Of a DNA stretch of 64,000 nucleotides, positions 12,717-29,665 are shown piece after piece. The DNA is from Escherichia coli 042. GTDB lineage: Bacteria > Pseudomonadota > Gammaproteobacteria > Enterobacterales > Enterobacteriaceae. The position numbers were made by a program, and so were the translations under genes. The notes below the pieces were generated by a model, which worked only from the letters and a program-made list of their open reading frames with translations, ran no database searches and was not told the origin of the DNA. Every line of letters begins with the position of its first letter. Within the stretch, counting starts at the first letter, position 1. Location of the stretch: NCBI RefSeq assembly GCF_000027125.1, contig NC_017626.1; one strand, written 5' to 3'.

Positions 12717-13754
12717 ATGGGGCAACAAAAACAGCGTAATCGACGTTGGGTTCTGGCCTCGCGTCCGCATGGCGCGCCGGTTCCGGAGAATTTCCGTCTT
12801 GAAGAAGATGATATCGCCACACCGGGTGAGGGACAGGTGTTACTGCGCACAGTTTATTTGTCACTGGACCCGTATATGCGTGGACGTATGAGCGATGAGC
12901 CATCTTATTCACCGCCGGTTGATATTGGCGGCGTGATGGTCGGCGGCACGGTGAGCCGTGTCGTGGAGTCGAATCATCCTGATTATCAGCCTGGCGACTG
13001 GGTGCTGGGCTACAGTGGATGGCAGGACTATGACATATCCAGTGGTGATGATCTGGTGAAACTTGGCGATCATCCGCAAAATCCATCGTGGTCGCTGGGT
13101 GTGCTGGGGATGCCAGGCTTTACCGCTTATATGGGGCTGCTGGATATCGGTCAGCCCAAAGAGGGCGAAACGCTGGTGGTAGCTGCGGCGACAGGACCAG
13201 TGGGGGCGACGGTGGGTCAAATCGGCAAACTTAAAGGTTGCAGGGTGGTGGGGATAGCCGGTGGCGCGGAAAAATGCCGCCATGCTACCGAGGTGTTAGG
13301 CTTTGATGTTTGTCTTGACCATCACGCGGATGATTTTGCCGAACAACTGGCGAAAGCGTGCCCAAAAGGCGTTGATATCTATTATGAAAACGTGGGCGGT
13401 AAAGTATTTGATGCGGTGCTACCGTTACTTAATACATCTGCGCGCATTCCCGTCTGCGGCTTAGTGAGCAGCTATAACGCTACAGAGCTACCACCCGGCC
13501 CGGATCGTTTACCTCTGCTGATGGCTACGGTGCTGAAAAAACGTATTCGCTTGCAAGGATTTATTATCGCTCAGGATTATGGTCACCGCATCCATGAGTT
13601 TCAGAAGGAGATGGGGCAATGGGTGAAAGAGGATAAAATCCACTACCGCGAAGAAATTACTGACGGTTTAGAGAATGCGCCACAGACATTTATCGGCCTG
13701 CTGAAGGGTAAAAACTTCGGCAAAGTGGTGATCCGCGTGGCGGGTGATGATTAA
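12717..13754 (+). CDS. curA: NADPH-dependent curcumin/dihydrocurcumin reductase (MDR superfamily)
   Basis: 345 aa from ATG at 12717 (track begins at an upstream ATG); Rossmann motif AAATGPVGATVGQ. Confidence 0.85.
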   Translation: MGQQKQRNRRWVLASRPHGAPVPENFRLEEDDIATPGEGQVLLRTVYLSLDPYMRGRMSDEPSYSPPVDIGGVMVGGTVSRVVESNHPDYQPGDWVLGYSGWQDYDISSGDDLVKLGDHPQNPSWSLGVLGMPGFTAYMGLLDIGQPKEGETLVVAAATGPVGATVGQIGKLKGCRVVGIAGGAEKCRHATEVLGFDVCLDHHADDFAEQLAKACPKGVDIYYENVGGKVFDAVLPLLNTSARIPVCGLVSSYNATELPPGPDRLPLLMATVLKKRIRLQGFIIAQDYGHRIHEFQKEMGQWVKEDKIHYREEITDGLENAPQTFIGLLKGKNFGKVVIRVAGDD

Positions 13755-13951
13755 AGATACGACGGCGGCGTAAGCCGCCATAAAAATCCAGGCAAAAAGC
13801 TTATTTTCAGCTTTAATTAACTAACCACGTCATTGTTCTGCTGCTAATAACAACAAAGGTGAGTGGTTTATGATTATTCACTTTAATACCCCAGGTGAAC
13901 TCCTTCTGCCATGCAGGCAGGGTTGGACAGAAAACACGCGAAGGAATTAAA

Positions 13952-14617
13952 ATGCCTGGAACGGAAAAAATGAAACATGTCAGTTTGACTCTGCAGGTTG
14001 AGAATGACCTGAAACATCAGCTTAGTATTGGCGCACTAAAACCTGGCGCACGCCTGATTACTAAAAATCTGGCGGAGCAATTAGGTATGAGTATTACACC
14101 TGTGCGTGAAGCATTATTACGTCTGGTTTCGGTGAATGCGCTTTCTGTCGCACCAGCGCAAGCATTTACAGTTCCGGAAGTGGGGAAACGTCAATTAGAC
14201 GAAATCAATCGGATCCGCTACGAGCTGGAATTAATGGCAGTTACTCTGGCTGTTGAAAACCTCACCCCGCAAGACCTGGCGGAACTCGAGGAATTGCTCG
14301 AGAAATTACAGCAGGCGCAAGAAAAGGGCGACATGGAACAAATCATTAATGCGAACAGGCTATTTCGCTTAGCGATTTATCATCGTTCAAATATGCCCAT
14401 CCTGTGTGAGATGATTGAGCAACTGTGGGTCAGGATGGGACCTGGTTTACATTATCTCTATGAAGCGATTAATCCAGCGGAATTACGGGAGCGTATAGAA
14501 AACTATCGTCTATTACTCGCCGCGTTAAAAGCAAAAGACAAAGAGGGATGCAGACATTGTCTTGCTGAAATTATGCAACAAAATATTGCTATTTTATACC
14601 AGCAATACAATCGTTAA
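13952..14617 (+). CDS. mcbR: GntR/FadR-family transcriptional regulator
   Basis: 221 aa from internal ATG; N-terminal GntR HTH. Confidence 0.85.
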   Translation: MPGTEKMKHVSLTLQVENDLKHQLSIGALKPGARLITKNLAEQLGMSITPVREALLRLVSVNALSVAPAQAFTVPEVGKRQLDEINRIRYELELMAVTLAVENLTPQDLAELEELLEKLQQAQEKGDMEQIINANRLFRLAIYHRSNMPILCEMIEQLWVRMGPGLHYLYEAINPAELRERIENYRLLLAALKAKDKEGCRHCLAEIMQQNIAILYQQYNR

Positions 14618-21396: not shown

Positions 21397-23802
21397 ATGT
21401 CCTTAAAAGGTCTTCGCTTTACGCTGGAGGTTGACGGCCAGGAGCCGGACACCTTTGCAGTGGTGAATTTCAGGTTAATCCAGAACCAGTCATATCCGTT
21501 TGTGATGAGTGTGGATGTTGCCAGCGACTCTTTTATGCAGACGGCGGAGATGCTGCTGGAGAAGAAGGCGACACTGACCATCTGGCAGGGCGCAGTGGCG
21601 CAGCGTTATGTCACCGGCGTGGTGGCGGGTTTTGGCATGCAGGAGAATAACGGCTGGCAGATGCGTTATCACCTGCGTATTGAGCCGCCGTTATGGCGGT
21701 GCGGGCTGCGGCAGAACTTTCGTATCTTCCAGCAGCAGGATATCCGGACGATATCGGCCACGTTACTGAACGAGAACGGCGTCACGGAGTGGACGCCGCT
21801 GTTTTATGAGGACCATCCGGCGCGGGAGTTCTGTGTCCAGTACGGGGAGTCGGACCTGGCGTTTCTGTCCCGGCTGTGGGCGGAGGAGGGTCTTTTCTTC
21901 TTTGAGCGGTTTGCGGCGGACAGTCCGGAGCAGAAGCTGACGCTGTGCGACGATGTGGCGGGGCTGTCACAGGCGGGGGAGTTTCCGTTTAACCCGGACA
22001 CATCGGCAGGTGCGGAGACGGAGTGTGTCAGTATGTTCCGTTATGAGGCGCATGTCCGCCCGTCATCGGTGCAGAGCCAGGATTACACCTTTAAGGTGCC
22101 GGACTGGCCGGGGATGTATGAGCAGCAGGGTGAGAACCTGAACGGACAGCTGGAGCAGTATGAGATATTTGATTATCCGGGAAGGTACAAGGATGAACAG
22201 CACGGCAAGGATTTCACGCTGTACCAGATGGAGAGCCTGCGCAGTGATGCGGAAAAGGCCACAGGGCAGAGTAATTCGCCGAAGCTGTGGCCGGGAACGC
22301 GGTTTATGCTGACGGGGCATCCGCAGAAGATGCTGAACCGTGAATGGCAGGTGGTACAGAGCATACTGTCAGGAAACCAGCCGCAGGCGCTGCACGGCAG
22401 CCAGGGAAAGGGAACCACGCTGGGCAATCAGTTAGAGGTGATACCGGCGGACCGGACGTGGCGTCCACGGCTGCAAAACAAACCGAAGGTGGACGGGCCA
22501 CAGAGCGCCATCGTCACCGGTCCTGCGGGAGAGGAAATCTTCTGCGATGAACATGGACGGGTACGGGTGAAGTTCCACTGGGACCGTTATCACGGGATGA
22601 CGGAGGCGAGTTCATGCTGGGTGCGGGTATCGCAGGCGTGGGCGGGGCCGGGGTTCGGTAACCTGGCGATACCACGGGTGGGTCAGGAGGTGATAGTGGA
22701 CTTCCTGAACGGCGACCCGGACCAGCCGATAATCATGGGGCGGACGTACCATGAGGACAACCGTTCGCCGGGCGACCTGCCGGGAACGAAGACGCAGATG
22801 ACCATCCGGTCAAAAACCTATAAAGGAAGCGGATTTAACGAGCTGCGGTTTGAAGACGCCACCAGTAATGAGCAGGTGTATATCCATGCCCAGAAGAACA
22901 TGGATACGGAGGTGCTCAACGACCGGACAACGGATGTGAAACATGACCATACGGAAACCATCGGGAACGACCAGAAGATAACGGTGGTGAAGGGGCAGAC
23001 GGTTCAGGTCGGGACCAGAAAAGAAGGGGGCCACGACCAGAGTATCACGGTGGCGAACGACCGGTGCATCACGGTACGTAATGACCAGACGCTGCAGGTG
23101 ACGAATGACCGGACGGTGAGCGTGAGTAATGATGACGGCCTGTACGTCAGAAATGACCGTAAAGTGACGGTGGAAGGGAAGCAGGAGCATAAGACGACGG
23201 GGAACCATATCAGTCTGGTGGAGGGAAAGCACAGCCTGGTGGTGAAGGGGGACCTGGCGAGGAAGGTGAGTGGCGCGCTGGGGATAAAGGTGGACGGGGA
23301 TATCGTGCTGGAGAGCAGCAGCCGGATAAGCCTGAAGGTGAGTGGCTCGTTTGTGGTCATCCATTCAGGGGGCGTGGACATCGTCGGGCCGAAAATCAAT
23401 CTCAATAGCGGCGGTAGTCCGGGGACGCCGGTGCCGGCGCTGCAACCGGCGGTGCTGAAGACACTGGGGGATGAGAAGAGTGGTGATGGCAGTGATTCCG
23501 GAGAAGAAAATGAAGACTCTGGAGGGAACTGCGTGACCGGAAGTGGTGGTGATGATCGAGGTGACGATGAGGATGAACCTGAAAAATATACTCTCCAGTT
23601 CCATTTTACAGACGATGACGGGATACCGTATTCAGAAACCCGCTACATTGCCTTCTTTGAGGATGGCACGCAGACCCGCGGAGAAACGGATGAAGAGGGG
23701 TATACAGAGCGTTTTTTTGTATCTAGCAAACATGAAATTAAAGTGAAGTTGTTATTTGCGAATGATGATTTTCTCTCAATGGAAGGACACTATGGACGAT
23801 AA
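21397..23802 (+). CDS. vgrG: Type VI secretion spike protein VgrG with acidic linker and C-terminal extension domain
   Basis: 801 aa; N-terminus MSLKGLRFTLEVDGQEPDTFAVVNFRL…IWQG…RIFQ matches VgrG gp27/gp5 core; C-terminal repeat-rich beta-helix; Gly/Asp/Glu-rich linker then ~70 aa terminal domain. Confidence 0.85.
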   Translation: MSLKGLRFTLEVDGQEPDTFAVVNFRLIQNQSYPFVMSVDVASDSFMQTAEMLLEKKATLTIWQGAVAQRYVTGVVAGFGMQENNGWQMRYHLRIEPPLWRCGLRQNFRIFQQQDIRTISATLLNENGVTEWTPLFYEDHPAREFCVQYGESDLAFLSRLWAEEGLFFFERFAADSPEQKLTLCDDVAGLSQAGEFPFNPDTSAGAETECVSMFRYEAHVRPSSVQSQDYTFKVPDWPGMYEQQGENLNGQLEQYEIFDYPGRYKDEQHGKDFTLYQMESLRSDAEKATGQSNSPKLWPGTRFMLTGHPQKMLNREWQVVQSILSGNQPQALHGSQGKGTTLGNQLEVIPADRTWRPRLQNKPKVDGPQSAIVTGPAGEEIFCDEHGRVRVKFHWDRYHGMTEASSCWVRVSQAWAGPGFGNLAIPRVGQEVIVDFLNGDPDQPIIMGRTYHEDNRSPGDLPGTKTQMTIRSKTYKGSGFNELRFEDATSNEQVYIHAQKNMDTEVLNDRTTDVKHDHTETIGNDQKITVVKGQTVQVGTRKEGGHDQSITVANDRCITVRNDQTLQVTNDRTVSVSNDDGLYVRNDRKVTVEGKQEHKTTGNHISLVEGKHSLVVKGDLARKVSGALGIKVDGDIVLESSSRISLKVSGSFVVIHSGGVDIVGPKINLNSGGSPGTPVPALQPAVLKTLGDEKSGDGSDSGEENEDSGGNCVTGSGGDDRGDDEDEPEKYTLQFHFTDDDGIPYSETRYIAFFEDGTQTRGETDEEGYTERFFVSSKHEIKVKLLFANDDFLSMEGHYGR

Positions 23803-24583
23803 TAATCAAACTTCTGGACAACCAAAGCCAGAGCCAGAAGAATGTGTGAAAGAGCAAAAAATAACTGATCATTTTAAAATAATGATTGATAAGGCTCGTA
23901 AGGCACAAAAGTTGGTTTTGATAAAAAGAGCAGATGATCTTTTGAGATGGGGAGCACAGGAGGAATATGATTTCAGTAAGATCTTTGGTGTTAAAGGAAA
24001 TAAGGAGGTTAATATAAGAAAATATGGACATAATACAGGTAGGCGCATGAATGCTAGATTTCTTATGATGGATGGTGTGAGAAGATTAATGATTATAGCT
24101 AATGATTTAACAATGAGCAGTTTTATAAATTATACAGGTTGTAATGAATTTGCAGCATTCGTCAGCCCAAGTAAGGATATGCCCTATATAATTAACATAG
24201 GCGCAAAATTTGAGTATAGAGATGGCAAAAAAAATCCAGTAACGGGAAAGGATTCTCATGTTGCTACTTTATGTCATGAAATGTCTCATATTCAGTGGTA
24301 TTATGGGGATAATAAAAAAGGTGGTATGTGGTCACAGGATTATACAACTACTGATAAATATTCAACGTGCAAAGAGGATGAAGTTTCATATGACGAACAT
24401 ATCCGTATTGCAACTAAACTGATCTCTAAACAAAAAGATCAAATATTCGAGAATGCATATAACATAGAAAGATATTTTGAAATAAGATTAATTGAAAGTG
24501 AGATAGACTCGATTAATGATGAAATATTAAGCAATTCAGTTAAGAAAAAAATAGCGGAATTAGAAAAAGCACTTCTCCATTAA
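23792..24583 (+). CDS. Candidate T6SS cargo effector with HExxH zinc-metallopeptidase-like motif
   Basis: 264 aa from ATG at 23792, overlapping the vgrG stop by 11 nt; GGAAGGA RBS; HEMSH at 24275-24289; ~30% GC by eye; no family recognised. Confidence 0.5.
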   Translation: MDDNNQTSGQPKPEPEECVKEQKITDHFKIMIDKARKAQKLVLIKRADDLLRWGAQEEYDFSKIFGVKGNKEVNIRKYGHNTGRRMNARFLMMDGVRRLMIIANDLTMSSFINYTGCNEFAAFVSPSKDMPYIINIGAKFEYRDGKKNPVTGKDSHVATLCHEMSHIQWYYGDNKKGGMWSQDYTTTDKYSTCKEDEVSYDEHIRIATKLISKQKDQIFENAYNIERYFEIRLIESEIDSINDEILSNSVKKKIAELEKALLH

Positions 24584-24606: not shown

Positions 24607-25428
24607 ATGCTGCAAGCTATAAAAAAAATCATAATAATGACAATCGTAAATATTATATTTTTCTATTCCTTTCAATCGACTGCGGATGAAATGGTTTTAA
24701 TAAAAAAATACGGGTTTGGGCTTGAGAGAGATATCAAAGGAAGGCCATTAATTTATCCTATCGAAAATTATGATGAGTGTAAGAAAAAATGCAATCATAT
24801 GAATTATATAGCGGATGTCAATGCTCAATTAGCTATGAGTAAAAAAAATAACAGGATTTTTGCTAACATAACCTTTACTAACAATAGCTCTACCACGTAT
24901 TTTTTTTCTAAATATTACCTACCTATGAAAGTAAAAGATGGAAAAGGAGATGAATATGATGCGATATGCAAAAAACCATTCAGAATCAACTCTGGGAATA
25001 TCACGTTGGACTACTTAGGTGGTTCATGTCCTTTTGAAATTAATACGAATCCTGAACGGTGGAATACTATTAAACCAGGTCGTAGTTTTTTGTTGAGTAT
25101 AACCTTAAATGATATGTATGCCTTTATACCAGGAGATAATTATTATTTTATAAAATCATCTGGCTATAAATTTGTTAATGACAAGTGGTTTACACTCAAA
25201 TCAATCAATAATATTTTTCTTTATTTTTTAAATTTAAAAATTAATTGTGCTGATGATTTTTTTGATATTAATAATTTTACTACATGTGATAATTTGTTAT
25301 TAGATGAAAAAAAACACTTTTTTATTAATCAGTTATGGGCAATTGAGGATGAAAAAAATTCTATTTACGTCACCCCTGATGAAATTTCTATAAGTATAGA
25401 CGGCGATAACTTAAAGTTGCCATATTAG
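24607..25428 (+). CDS. Candidate cognate immunity protein (periplasmic, signal-peptide-bearing)
   Basis: 273 aa, AT-rich; N-terminal hydrophobic segment IIIMTIVNIIFFYSFQSTA; several Cys; directly downstream of the effector candidate. Confidence 0.45.
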   Translation: MLQAIKKIIIMTIVNIIFFYSFQSTADEMVLIKKYGFGLERDIKGRPLIYPIENYDECKKKCNHMNYIADVNAQLAMSKKNNRIFANITFTNNSSTTYFFSKYYLPMKVKDGKGDEYDAICKKPFRINSGNITLDYLGGSCPFEINTNPERWNTIKPGRSFLLSITLNDMYAFIPGDNYYFIKSSGYKFVNDKWFTLKSINNIFLYFLNLKINCADDFFDINNFTTCDNLLLDEKKHFFINQLWAIEDEKNSIYVTPDEISISIDGDNLKLPY

Positions 25429-25447
25429 GAATCTGTGAAAGAACAAG

Positions 25448-25936
25448 GTGCGCCGCTTTTTTGTACTAAATAATTCGCATTTTAGTCACGGCAGAGAAGA
25501 AATCCATCTTCATATTGTTTGCGATGTCCCTGATGAACTTATTGATTTCACGTTTGAATGGAAAGGTCAGAAGAAATTATGCGTGGCAGTCTCCTTTTGG
25601 TCAATAATAGCAGAACAAAAGAAAGAGCCAGAAATGACGGTCAGATATTATATCAGTTCTGCTGATTTAACCGCAAAAAAGTTCGCCACAGCGATACGAA
25701 ATCACTGGCACGTGGAGAATAAGCTGCACTGGCGTCTGGACGTGGTAATGAACGAAGACGACTGCAAAATAAGAAGAGGAAACGCCGCAGAATTATTTTC
25801 AGGGATACGGCACATCGCTATTAATATTTTAACGAATGATAAGGTATTCAAGGCAGGGTTAAGACGCAAGATGCGAAAAGCAGCTATGGACAGAGACTAC
25901 CTCGCGTCAGTCCTTGCGGGGAGCGGGCTTTCGTAA
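25448..25936 (+). pseudogene. ISAs1-family (H-repeat-associated) transposase, C-terminal fragment
   Basis: C-terminal ~140 aa resemble H-repeat-associated proteins ([30 protein letters not shown]…); N-terminal two-thirds absent. Confidence 0.7.
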
Positions 25937-26044
25937 TCTTGCCCTGGCGATCGAATAGCGCAGATGACGGTGCTCTAAATTTGAATCTAATAAGCCGGTG
26001 TTATTTTTCATCCACTATTAAAATCTTGACACAACGAGGCAACA

Positions 26045-26605
26045 ATGAAAAAAAGCAAAAAAATTAAAACAATGAACCATCAAAATAATAGCGGGATACA
26101 AAATCAACCAGACTATCACATCGAAATAGAAAGAAAAAATATGGTAAGATTGCTTGATGAACGTATTGATAAAGTTTACGGTTCATTGCTAGGACCAATG
26201 AAAAAGAAAAATATAGATAAAATACGTCATTTTACACTTGATGTAATGGTGTTTATTCTTGACACGAACCCTCGTGTTTGTAATAAATTATCCAGGGAAA
26301 TAATATCTTTAGCGCAAAATACCTTCATTGAAAAAAACGTTAATTTTTCAACTTTTAATAATGAACAGCATAGAATAAGGGAGTATATGAATGAAGGTGG
26401 TGGAATACGATGGTTTACATGGGATAACCCCGAGATATCTTTTGTTCGTGCATCTTTTGGCCTTTTTGTCAAAATGGAAACAAAAGGTGATCATGAACAT
26501 ACACTAAGTGACACATTTCTTCAGATTGTTGAGTGTGTTAATTTAAATATAGGACTTATTGCAAAAGATGAACTGGTAAAAATCATCAATAAACACTTTA
26601 TGTAA
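26045..26605 (+). CDS. Hypothetical protein (AT-rich accessory ORF, no recognisable domain)
   Basis: 186 aa ORF with GAGG RBS; low GC; no TM segments. Confidence 0.4.
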   Translation: MKKSKKIKTMNHQNNSGIQNQPDYHIEIERKNMVRLLDERIDKVYGSLLGPMKKKNIDKIRHFTLDVMVFILDTNPRVCNKLSREIISLAQNTFIEKNVNFSTFNNEQHRIREYMNEGGGIRWFTWDNPEISFVRASFGLFVKMETKGDHEHTLSDTFLQIVECVNLNIGLIAKDELVKIINKHFM

Positions 26606-26964
26606 AAATATACTTCTGTATGAAGTTATAATAATACAGTGAAAATCATCAAATTATTAATTAATGATGCTCTTTGTTATTATTTACTTTTTACAATTGA
26701 ATCAGGGGTTTTATTTTCTGTAGTAAAGTTGTATTTTTGCTAAAGGTGATAAAGTACAGGTGTTTATATTAAATTAGAACTCCCCTTAATTATCATAAAT
26801 ACAAAGAGGTGAAAACATGCGGGGGTGTTTTCGTTAAATAATACCATGGTGAATTAATAACATGCTATCAGTGATATACATATTTTCTCTAACAAAGTTT
26901 TAGTAAAATTACGCGTAGTAAGAAGATTCCGCCAAAGATTCCATATAATAATATTAAGGTTGTT

Positions 26965-27600
26965 ATGAATAAAGGTAATAGATTACAACAGTTAGAAGAT
27001 GCGTGTCGTGATATTATTAAAATTAACATGTGGTATGAACTCCCCGATTATGTATTTTTTTCAATATCTGACACCATCGATGGGACGAGTGATGAATTCG
27101 CAATAAATGTGTATAAAAATATCGATAAAAGTCTTCTTGAAATATTATTGCATCCATCTGTTTTACTGTCAGTTGTTGAGTCCTTACAAAGTAATACTAT
27201 AGCTGAGTATATCGTGAAATTGTCTGAAATAGAGATGAATTATGACGACTTGCTAATATCGGATGTTAAATCATGTCTTTTTATCAACTATGGATTCAAT
27301 AACAGTGAATCGGTTGCGCTATTTAATAAGATTTACCGCGAATTAAAAGATATTGTAAAATCATCAAGAGTACATATAGATCATGAGAAAGATATTTTTG
27401 ATGGCCTTAATCAAATCTTGGCTTTTTCCGATAATAATAAACATGAGTATTTTTTATATATAAAGGCATATTGGCTCAGTTTATACTTTTGTGAAATTTC
27501 ACAGAACGTGAGAGAAAGAGATAAGTTGTCATTTTATTATAATGAATTTTCTGTCCGATTTCCTAATGTTGTCCTATATCCGTCATGCTACAAATTGTAA
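26965..27600 (+). CDS. Hypothetical protein (AT-rich accessory ORF, no recognisable domain)
   Basis: 211 aa ORF with AAGG RBS; low GC. Confidence 0.4.
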   Translation: MNKGNRLQQLEDACRDIIKINMWYELPDYVFFSISDTIDGTSDEFAINVYKNIDKSLLEILLHPSVLLSVVESLQSNTIAEYIVKLSEIEMNYDDLLISDVKSCLFINYGFNNSESVALFNKIYRELKDIVKSSRVHIDHEKDIFDGLNQILAFSDNNKHEYFLYIKAYWLSLYFCEISQNVRERDKLSFYYNEFSVRFPNVVLYPSCYKL

Positions 27601-27725
27601 GGCTTGGCACCTGAAATTCATTGTTAATTCGAGACGCTTGATTGTCCACTATATCAAAACAGTCATACCTCGGAATTTTCTCGCATTAGTCCATACGGTA
27701 TTCAATATTCGCAACTGTGCCCTGA

Positions 27726-27926
27726 AATAAAAAACTGCAAAACTGCTTTTTCTTGACCTGTCCCAATCACGCAAGACTACTTTTAGTAGAGACCTCCAGC
27801 TATGTCGATTTTAGTGCCGCCCGCGCATTTTATACAAAACAGGGCTTTATTAATGAAGCTATAATACGCAATTACTATGATGTTGGTGAGGATAAATTAA
27901 TCTTCACTAAAAATATGCAATCGTGA
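27726..27926 (+). pseudogene. GNAT acetyltransferase C-terminal remnant
   Basis: Manual translation …DFSAARAFYTKQGFINEAIIRNYYDVGEDKLIFTKNMQS*; in-frame stop just upstream, no plausible start. Confidence 0.35.
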
Positions 27927-27992
27927 GATAAAATATGCTTTTAACTCATATTGAAACATTGCTTAAGCAACTTGGTTGCTGCATATGATTCT

Positions 27993-28562
27993 TTAGCCCG
28001 CGGTGACTCGCTTGCCGCTGGTAACAAACGTGCCAGCACCTAAGTGATGTAGTGTATTGAGTTTATCATCATCAAACTGCCAGCGGCCTTCGACAAATAC
28101 CCGTGCGTCTGCCGCTGCTGATACCACCTCGCCAAACAGCGTGTCGTATTTTTCTTGCGCGGAAGTCGCAGGTAGCAAGCGGCACTCCATCCACGCCAGA
28201 CATTTTTCCTCGACCAGAGGCAAACCAAGTACCGGACCTTTCACTACTGGAATGCCGTAGCAATTAAATTTATCTTCTTCACGACCCGACACACTTCCCA
28301 CCGCCCACGTCCAGTTAGTTGCTGCAACGCCCGGGATAACGATGCCAAATTTACCGTTACGTTCAATCAACTCCCTGGTCCATGTCGATTTATCTACCAC
28401 GATCGCAACACGTGGCGGTTCAAACTCTACCGGCATCGACCAGGCCGCAGCCATCACATTACGTCGCTGTGATTTTTCATCAAAAGTTGTTATCAAAATA
28501 GTTGGGCCATGATTTAACAGACGGCTGGCATGGTGTAATTCGACAGGGATGAATCGGCTCAC
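27993..28562 (-). CDS. yddH: Flavin reductase-like protein
   Basis: 189 aa, flavin reductase-like fold; GTG start. Confidence 0.85.
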   Translation of the reverse strand: MSRFIPVELHHASRLLNHGPTILITTFDEKSQRRNVMAAAWSMPVEFEPPRVAIVVDKSTWTRELIERNGKFGIVIPGVAATNWTWAVGSVSGREEDKFNCYGIPVVKGPVLGLPLVEEKCLAWMECRLLPATSAQEKYDTLFGEVVSAAADARVFVEGRWQFDDDKLNTLHHLGAGTFVTSGKRVTAG

Positions 28563-29582: not shown

Positions 29583-29585
29583 TTT

Positions 29586-29660
29586 ATGTCAGGTTGCCGG
29601 ATGCGGCGTAAACGCCTTATCCGGCATACATAGACCTGATAAGCGAAGCGCATCAGGCAA
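29586..29660. repeat. REP (repetitive extragenic palindrome) units between nhoA and yddE
   Basis: GCCGGATGCGGCGTAAACGCCTTATCCGGC … GCGCATCAGGC palindromic units. Confidence 0.7.
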
Positions 29661-29665
29661 CGGTT

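Follow-up and report, generated by a model that had tools for sequence, protein, structure and literature searches.

What are the two small, AT-rich genes that lie at one end of the variable island between yncG and yddH in Escherichia coli 042? We analysed a stretch of 64,000 nucleotides (nt) of this strain (contig NC_017626.1; hereafter the window), in which two open reading frames (ORFs), ORF1 of 186 amino acids (aa) and ORF2 of 211 aa, follow the remnant of an ISAs1 (H-repeat) transposase gene. A first, sequence-only reading had proposed that they are orphan immunity or effector genes. The immunity half of this proposal is supported by the conserved order in related bacteria, where homologues of both ORFs follow toxin domains; for the effector half we found no support. 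We consider it very likely that the two ORFs are orphan immunity genes, unrelated to each other, from polymorphic-toxin systems of the T6SS (type VI secretion system). From sequence, we predict that ORF1 most likely encodes an orphan immunity protein against a YwqJ-like deaminase-fold toxin at the C-terminus of an Rhs protein, and ORF2 most likely one against an EndoU RNase toxin of a T6SS effector associated with DUF2169 and PAAR-like proteins.

Homologues of ORF1 and ORF2 behind toxin domains

The homology and distribution check that the sequence-only reading had proposed showed that homologues in Enterobacteriaceae follow toxin domains; ORF1 and ORF2 themselves occur in 186 and 237 of 5,426 complete E. 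coli genomes, respectively. Homologues of ORF2 with 53-63% identity start 16-17 bp after EndoU_bacteria (PF14436) domains. On a metagenomic contig (L020), a 592-aa product, truncated where the contig ends, is followed by DUF2169, a Tox-PAAR-like protein, an intact 388-aa EndoU_bacteria protein, the ORF2 homologue P0017 and ISAs1, with a gap of 16 nt between the EndoU_bacteria gene and P0017. The same order, with the effector split, was found in Pseudocitrobacter faecalis and two further metagenome contigs (L004-L006). The gene upstream of the ORF2 homologue was assigned to PF14436 with E ≤ 1e-5 in L004, L005, L006 and L020. In Shigella flexneri (L013) an 88-aa remnant of the EndoU C-terminus directly precedes the homologue P0025, and another contig (L014) opens with the last 38 EndoU codons, followed by the homologue P0024; both fragments align to the same EndoU C-terminal sequence. 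Four divergent members of the ORF2 family therefore occupy the place of the immunity gene next to an EndoU toxin.

For ORF1, the partner is the tip of an Rhs protein. In Citrobacter portucalensis (L003) the homologue P0006 (58-60% identity) starts 3 bp after the gene of a 1,481-aa PAAR-like/Rhs protein, which is itself preceded by VgrG and DUF2169. Homologues in other E. coli are 69-72% identical to ORF1; one of them, P0002 (L010), lies between a 440-aa orphan Rhs C-terminal fragment, which ends 3 bp before its start, and an ISAs1 transposase, and at a further locus (L009) an 89-aa remnant of the toxin C-terminal domain (CT) alone precedes the homologue. As a separate observation, two different Rhs loci (L009 8090-8401, L018 6373-6702) carry a SymE-family type I toxin gene in reverse orientation, with the Rhs immunity gene on one side of it and the ISAs1/orphan region on the other.

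The Rhs proteins of L003 and L010 have a common C-terminal domain of ~130 aa past the DPxGL core boundary (...GYHGKCAEVDAINKAL...ACxTCNPLLKIFGIM...). The top Pfam matches of this domain in L003 and L010 are sub-threshold, namely YwqJ-deaminase (PF14431; independent E-values of 0.0016 and 0.0094) and dCMP_cyt_deam_1 (0.0097 and 0.049), and the Rhs-CT alone had no sequence match in the PDB. Its sequence contains GKCAE and CTTC or CVTC, and the protein ends 13 residues past the CxxC. The YwqJ clade of deaminases is characterised by Gx[CH]xE in helix 2, CxxC, a His-containing insert before helix 2, a further insert ahead of CxxC, a chain that is often cut short after helix 3, and carriers of the RHS/PAAR type (Iyer et al. 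2011, Table 1, PMC3239186). The Rhs-CT shows the Gx[CH]xE motif, the His insert, the insert before CxxC, the truncation after helix 3 and the RHS/PAAR carrier. On these grounds, the toxin paired with the ORF1 family is probably a deaminase-fold domain of the YwqJ-like kind.

In relatives, then, members of both families are encoded directly downstream of a toxin CT and on the same strand, which is not the case in the window. In other genera the two families occur apart, each with its own toxin, and they were never found together outside E. coli. For this reason, we regard ORF1 and ORF2 as two independent immunity genes and not as a pair.

An ORF2 homologue (59% identity) was also found in a different island of E. 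albertii, between cusS and nfrB (L007/L008 9111-12114). The small ORFs around it encode 152, 82, 75-190 and 178 aa, the last two products being very hydrophobic; none of these ORFs matched Pfam or NCBIfam, and no toxin gene was called in this island. It may be a second orphan cluster.

Lost toxins and the families left behind

Neither toxin was found beside ORF1 or ORF2. A tblastn search with both toxin domains against the 64-kb window gave nothing near the ORFs, and when toxin plus immunity DNA was searched by blastn against the 5,426 complete E. coli genomes only the immunity part matched, although a toxin below about 65% DNA identity would escape this search. The blastn homology starts 24 nt upstream of the ORF1 start codon and 20 nt upstream of that of ORF2. 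Upstream of ORF1, a stretch of 51 nt (25992-26042) can be aligned with the final ~20 codons of the gene for the Rhs toxin (...CxxCNPLLKIFGIM..*); it has a 10-nt deletion, and its frame is closed. The score of the alignment to L010 was reached by 1 of 3000 shuffled sequences, and that of the equivalent stretch of L002 by 8 of 3000. Because of the 10-nt gap this relic had been missed by stringent local DNA alignment, and it was found by a permissive one; no significant similarity was seen when it was extended as far as the end of ISAs1 (25947-25991). The stretch is a direct trace of the lost toxin gene. Since neither toxin is present in the window, no DNA match to either was detected in the 5,426 genomes and a toxin relic precedes ORF1, we consider both genes to be orphans, which supports the earlier suggestion that they had been displaced from their toxins.

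Searches of Pfam, NCBIfam, PADLOC and PHROGs gave no significant match for ORF1 or ORF2, PDB sequence searches with the two family profiles gave no match, and a literature search with the two RefSeq protein accessions returned nothing. Homologues of ORF1 form 8 clusters in a word-indexed search. When 1.84 billion representatives were searched exhaustively with a hidden Markov model (HMM) of the ORF1 family, 7 matches were obtained, all of them close relatives or fragments, and the ORF1 alignment could therefore not be deepened. For ORF2 we found ~20 clusters (E. coli, E. albertii, Shigella flexneri, Pseudocitrobacter and metagenomes), and the profile search gave 20 matches, all close relatives, whose named sources are all Enterobacteriaceae and the remainder metagenome contigs. 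The two families are thus very small, and their range is restricted to Enterobacteriaceae.

Homologues with 53-72% amino-acid identity share start, frame and length with ORF1 and ORF2. The pairwise ratio of nonsynonymous to synonymous substitution rates (dN/dS) between divergent family members is 0.11-0.29 overall (0.11-0.21 for ORF1 against distant members, 0.12-0.29 for ORF2). Each family is under purifying selection, and because the frames are conserved and the family dN/dS is this low, ORF1 and ORF2 are real genes and more than chance reading frames. The sequence-only reading had named poorly conserved frames, or a match to a phage or housekeeping family, as what would speak against it; the frames are intact across genera and no such family matched. 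The GC content of the immunity genes is 0.29-0.30, compared to 0.41-0.42 for the toxin CTs. A narrow, fast-diverging family with a GC content below that of the toxin gene is what marks a polymorphic-toxin immunity gene, and this is what we observed.

To locate the products, hydropathy was calculated according to Kyte and Doolittle in 19-residue windows, KD(19), with a cut-off of 1.6. No segment of transmembrane grade and no signal-like N-terminus was present in ORF1 (maximum KD(19) of 1.21) or ORF2 (1.51), whereas the neighbouring 273-aa protein, which served as a positive control, reached 1.85 at its N-terminus. With the profile libraries empty and KD(19) below the cut-off throughout, the initial impression that neither ORF has a recognisable domain, signal peptide or transmembrane segment holds. 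Both proteins are predicted to be cytoplasmic, which fits immunity to nucleic-acid toxins that act in the cytoplasm.

ORF1 would descend from an Rhs toxin-immunity module with a YwqJ-like deaminase-fold tip, and ORF2 from a module with an EndoU-type RNase on an effector associated with DUF2169 and PAAR-like proteins. By analogy with pairs like SsdA-SsdAI, the immunity protein would be produced in the cytoplasm of the cell that makes the toxin, bind the cognate toxin domain and block its active site. As both toxin genes are gone in the window, the products, if expressed, could act defensively only. They would neutralise the matching toxins when a competitor, for example another E. coli, a Citrobacter or a Pseudocitrobacter, injects them.

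Structure predictions were made for both proteins. In the best model of ORF1, a disordered, Lys-rich N-terminus leads into seven helices, and the fold is all-alpha (predicted local distance difference test, pLDDT, 79; predicted template modelling score, pTM, 0.76). This model superposes with a template modelling (TM) score of 0.93 on the model of the same protein in AFDB, where the entry D3GRJ3 (E. coli 042, the enteroaggregative reference strain) is 100% identical to ORF1 and annotated shorter, with 154 aa. A Foldseek search of the ORF1 model against AFDB50 returned only its own E. coli entries and weak, uncharacterised matches. SsdAI (PDB 7jtu chain B) is the protein of Pseudomonas syringae that gives immunity to SsdA, a T6SS toxin that deaminates cytosine in single-stranded DNA; it is reported to be exclusively alpha-helical and to occlude the deaminase active site (de Moraes et al. 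2021, PMC7901873). The predicted fold of ORF1 may resemble that of SsdAI, which would agree with the gene context and is independent of it, and we take this possible likeness as modest evidence. ORF2 is an acidic protein that is likewise predicted to be mostly alpha-helical.

Orphan immunity genes and arrays of CT and immunity genes are established in Enterobacteriaceae downstream of Rhs, VgrG and CdiA loci. ORF1 and ORF2 resemble such arrays in being small AT-rich genes at the distal end of an Rhs/VgrG island beside an H-repeat (ISAs1), and in having homologues elsewhere that are paired with toxin CTs, while the toxin is missing here and a 3' relic of it precedes ORF1. Classical orphan modules, on the other hand, usually carry a toxin-CT fragment fused to a piece of the Rhs core, whereas here ~50 nt of toxin remain before ORF1 and none before ORF2. 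The two proteins also differ from described cases in belonging to no described Imm family. The immunity families Imm6 and SUKH-3 are reported to accompany deaminase toxins of the YwqJ clade (Iyer et al. 2011, PMC3239186); the role predicted for ORF1, immunity to a YwqJ-like deaminase toxin on Rhs/PAAR proteins, is like theirs, but Imm6 and SUKH proteins are alpha+beta, unlike ORF1 with its all-alpha prediction and lack of a Pfam match. Immunity to EndoU toxins is provided by the SUKH, Imm-SuFu and Imm28 families (Zhang et al. 2012, PMC3482391) and by MafI, which is known from Salmonella Rhs-EndoU (PMC10469887) and Neisseria MafB (PMC4287609). Like known EndoU immunity proteins, homologues of ORF2 are encoded directly downstream of an EndoU-type toxin domain, and its helical prediction resembles Imm28, which is described as mostly alpha-helical. 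Unlike SUKH, Imm-SuFu, Imm28 and MafI, however, ORF2 has no Pfam match even at E ≤ 10 and no match in NCBIfam or the PDB.

Erosion of the array and competing explanations

ORF1 is present in E. coli as a single chromosomal copy with the full query length covered in all 186 carriers, full length being judged by DNA coverage, so that at least 2 of the 186 nevertheless carry a frameshift that splits ORF1. ORF2 is covered over its full length in 193 of its 237 carriers, at least three of which carry a truncating frameshift, and only its 3' 31-39% is left in the other 44. As at least 175 carrier genomes are at least 99% identical, these counts carry little independent weight.

Part of the loss probably involves the insertion element. 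The right end of ISAs1 is at window position 25946, and five aligned loci all diverge after ...TAATCTTGCCCTG. This same right end meets four different points of the ORF1-ORF2 array (including L018 6854-8250 and L019 4668-6653). In EC42405 it lies inside the spacer between the ORFs, with ORF1 gone and ORF2 intact, and it is found at ORF2 nucleotide 387 in LCP30S3_I5 and at nucleotide 441 in another strain. From these junctions we infer nested deletions anchored at ISAs1. A lineage that lacks VgrG (LHM10-1, 6EVA, wlxctx60) carries three more small AT-rich ORFs, followed by ORF1, ORF2 and an intact GNAT gene. The three ORFs (90, 66-118 and 140 aa) lie before ORF1, between yncG and yddH (L002 7867-8959, L017 3882-4974); none of them matched NCBIfam, and the 140-aa ORF had no Pfam match either. 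They may be further orphan immunity genes of a poly-immunity array.

Several observations weigh against immunity genes that still function, or against the partners assigned to them. In the VgrG-less lineage a frameshift shortens ORF2 to 165 aa, and wlxctx60 also has a split ORF1; this suggests relaxed constraint in the orphan state. Between the ORF1 variants of the window and LHM10-1, which differ by few substitutions, dN/dS is ~0.9 (0.88). Promoter-like sites are no more numerous than in shuffled sequence. Cross-protection is uncertain, since identity to the toxin-linked homologues is only 58-72% for ORF1 and 53-63% for ORF2. Local alignment found no significant toxin relic upstream of ORF2. 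The deaminase call for the partner of ORF1 depends on sub-threshold Pfam matches together with motifs, four of the five ORF1 models are poor and one is confident, and the match to the SsdAI fold is modest for a helical protein; moreover, the deaminase clade of SsdA differs from the YwqJ-like clade. The ORF2 model, which is all-alpha, is weak (pLDDT 66), with generic helical matches only.

The frameshifts and the high dN/dS are also arguments for regarding ORF1 and ORF2 as decaying, non-functional relics, that is, former immunity genes that are now silent (for example as AT-rich DNA silenced by H-NS) or unselected. We hold this to be quite possible, if somewhat short of probable. It draws further support from the ISAs1-anchored deletions that remove ORF1 or cut ORF2, as in the 44 genomes with its 3' part only, and from the promoter signal at chance level; because of these deletions and of the frameshifts in some lineages, the array may partly or wholly be a relic. 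Against it, both frames are intact in the window and coverage is complete in 186 of 186 ORF1 carriers and 193 of 237 ORF2 carriers, subject to the redundancy of these genomes, and orphan immunity genes are protective in other systems. Examples of the latter are the acquired interbacterial defence (AID) genes of Bacteroidales and the orphan immunity genes studied in Vibrio cholerae. Taken together, the genes are intact in the lineage of the window, and their orphan state looks weakly constrained.

It is very improbable that ORF1 and ORF2 act jointly in a two-gene system not yet described (a toxin-antitoxin or phage defence module, for example), or that ORF2 is an aminopeptidase. The two genes are adjacent in 186 E. 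coli genomes, and some NCBI and UniRef records give the name 'aminopeptidase' to ORF2 homologues. The families are, however, never together outside E. coli and each is linked to its own toxin; ORF2 occurs without ORF1 in seven E. coli genomes; and no defence or peptidase match was obtained in PADLOC, PHROGs, Pfam or NCBIfam even at E ≤ 1-10. The two-gene system was rejected on grounds of gene context. The name 'aminopeptidase' (e.g. L019 6018-6653, WP_105288505.1) was rejected on the same grounds; there is no peptidase profile, and the invariant columns contain no motif resembling a metal-binding site or a catalytic triad. This label is probably a propagated misannotation.

That the two ORFs are effectors or toxins carried by the adjacent VgrG would agree with their strand, their position downstream of the PAAR-VgrG-effector operon and the lack of a known domain, but we rejected this on gene context as hardly credible, since every informative relative has them after a toxin domain and not before an immunity gene, an ISAs1 remnant stands between them and the VgrG operon, some E. 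coli loci have them without any VgrG, and no toxin, enzyme or MIX/FIX-type motif was found in Pfam, NCBIfam, PADLOC or PHROGs.

We also considered a bolder version of the orphan immunity reading, in which ORF1 and ORF2 found two undescribed immunity families, the first for YwqJ-like deaminase Rhs toxins and the second for EndoU T6SS effectors, that ~3-4% of E. coli keep without a toxin as an active, acquired cross-species defence against T6SS attack by Citrobacter, Pseudocitrobacter and E. coli, and in which ORF1 may share a helical deaminase-inhibitor scaffold with SsdAI and DUF416. This we think unlikely, though not far-fetched.

The island around the two orphan genes

ORF1 and ORF2 lie at the yddH-proximal end of the yncG-yddH (rhsE/vgrG) variable island of E. 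coli (Table 1). In E. coli K-12, which has neither ORF, this island holds rhsE, ydcC (H-repeat) and pptA. The RefSeq chromosome of E. coli CFSAN061770 (L001) is 100% identical to window 25900-27990 and is annotated in the order yncG, PAAR, VgrG, 'peptidase M35', hypothetical, partial ISAs1 transposase, ORF1, ORF2, yddH and nhoA. In this record both ORFs are labelled 'hypothetical protein' and the transposase remnant 'ISAs1 family transposase, incomplete, missing N-terminus'. The setting at the tail of the VgrG island, between the ISAs1 remnant and yddH, is thus as first described, and so are the coordinates, the lengths and the low GC content (~0.30) of the two ORFs. The GC content is 0.27-0.31 over 26000-27600, compared to ~0.5 in yddH and nhoA and 0.55-0.63 in VgrG. 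The ribosome-binding sites that had been called good are plausible as well; by inspection of the sequence, Shine-Dalgarno-like motifs are visible before ORF1 (acGAGGcaacaATG) and ORF2 (ttAAGGttgttATG).

Table 1. Features of the yddH-proximal part of the island, in window coordinates.
Feature	Position	Strand	Description and basis
ORF1	26045-26605	+	ATG start, 186 aa; ORF list
ORF2	26965-27600	+	ATG start, 211 aa; ORF list
VgrG (PAAR-VgrG)	21397-23802	+	Upstream context, outside the orphan pair; ORF list and RefSeq annotation
M35-like metallopeptidase, HEMSH motif	23756-24583	+	Upstream context; ORF list and RefSeq annotation
273-aa protein with N-terminal hydrophobic segment	24607-25428	+	ORF list, RefSeq, hydropathy
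ISAs1-family (H-repeat) remnant	25448-25946	+	C-terminal 162 codons of transposase (25448-25936) and right end of element to 25946
Rhs toxin gene 3' relic, degenerate	25992-26042	+	Alignment to toxin 3' ends of L010 and L003
AT-rich inter-ORF spacer, 359 nt	26606-26964		Conserved in the LHM10-1-type locus of E. coli
GNAT N-acetyltransferase gene 3' remnant, 57 codons	27753-27926	+	yddH-proximal edge of the variable island
yddH, flavin reductase family	27993-28562	-	Conserved core-genome flank of the island

In the spacer between the ORFs, the + strand lacks any ORF of at least 40 aa; Rfam gave no match there, and a relic of an EndoU toxin was not detected. An Rfam scan of window 25400-28100 was empty. 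Promoter and terminator scans were at chance level, with no terminator-like site between the ORFs and the upstream operon.

The remnant next to yddH corresponds to a GNAT gene that is intact (155 aa) in loci of the LHM10-1 type (L002 10940-11407), and ~460 bp of that locus are missing from the window. Elsewhere (L021 199-3321), an ORF2 homologue with 61% identity lies beside a yncG-like glutathione S-transferase (GST), a pair of a TacA-like antitoxin and a GNAT acetyltransferase, and a tautomerase. This suggests that the GNAT gene on the yddH side could be part of a TacAT-type toxin-antitoxin module in some genomes.

Further upstream, the M35-labelled protein of 275 aa with the HEMSH (HExxH) motif overlaps the 3' end of VgrG, and the next gene encodes the AT-rich 273-aa protein. 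Neither product matches NCBIfam or PADLOC; the first is probably a metallopeptidase effector linked to VgrG, and the second the exported protein that gives immunity to it. On the other side of yddH, L001 carries IS1397 between nhoA and yddE (12764-14112), which is absent at window 29583-29665.

For E. coli, reading ORF1 and ORF2 as orphan immunity genes gives a specific and testable role, with named toxin types, to two 'hypothetical protein' genes that are present in about 190-240 of 5,426 complete genomes. It adds two immunity families without profiles to the catalogue used to annotate T6SS/Rhs islands, and it documents the stepwise erosion of an orphan immunity array, by deletions that appear to be anchored at ISAs1, at the yncG-yddH hotspot. 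The principle of immunity without a toxin is already well established, and in this respect the gain is incremental. Should ORF1 share a scaffold with SsdAI and DUF416, this would hint at a function for the uncharacterised DUF416. If the two proteins still protect, toxin-less immunity would help to shape which gut competitors a strain can withstand.

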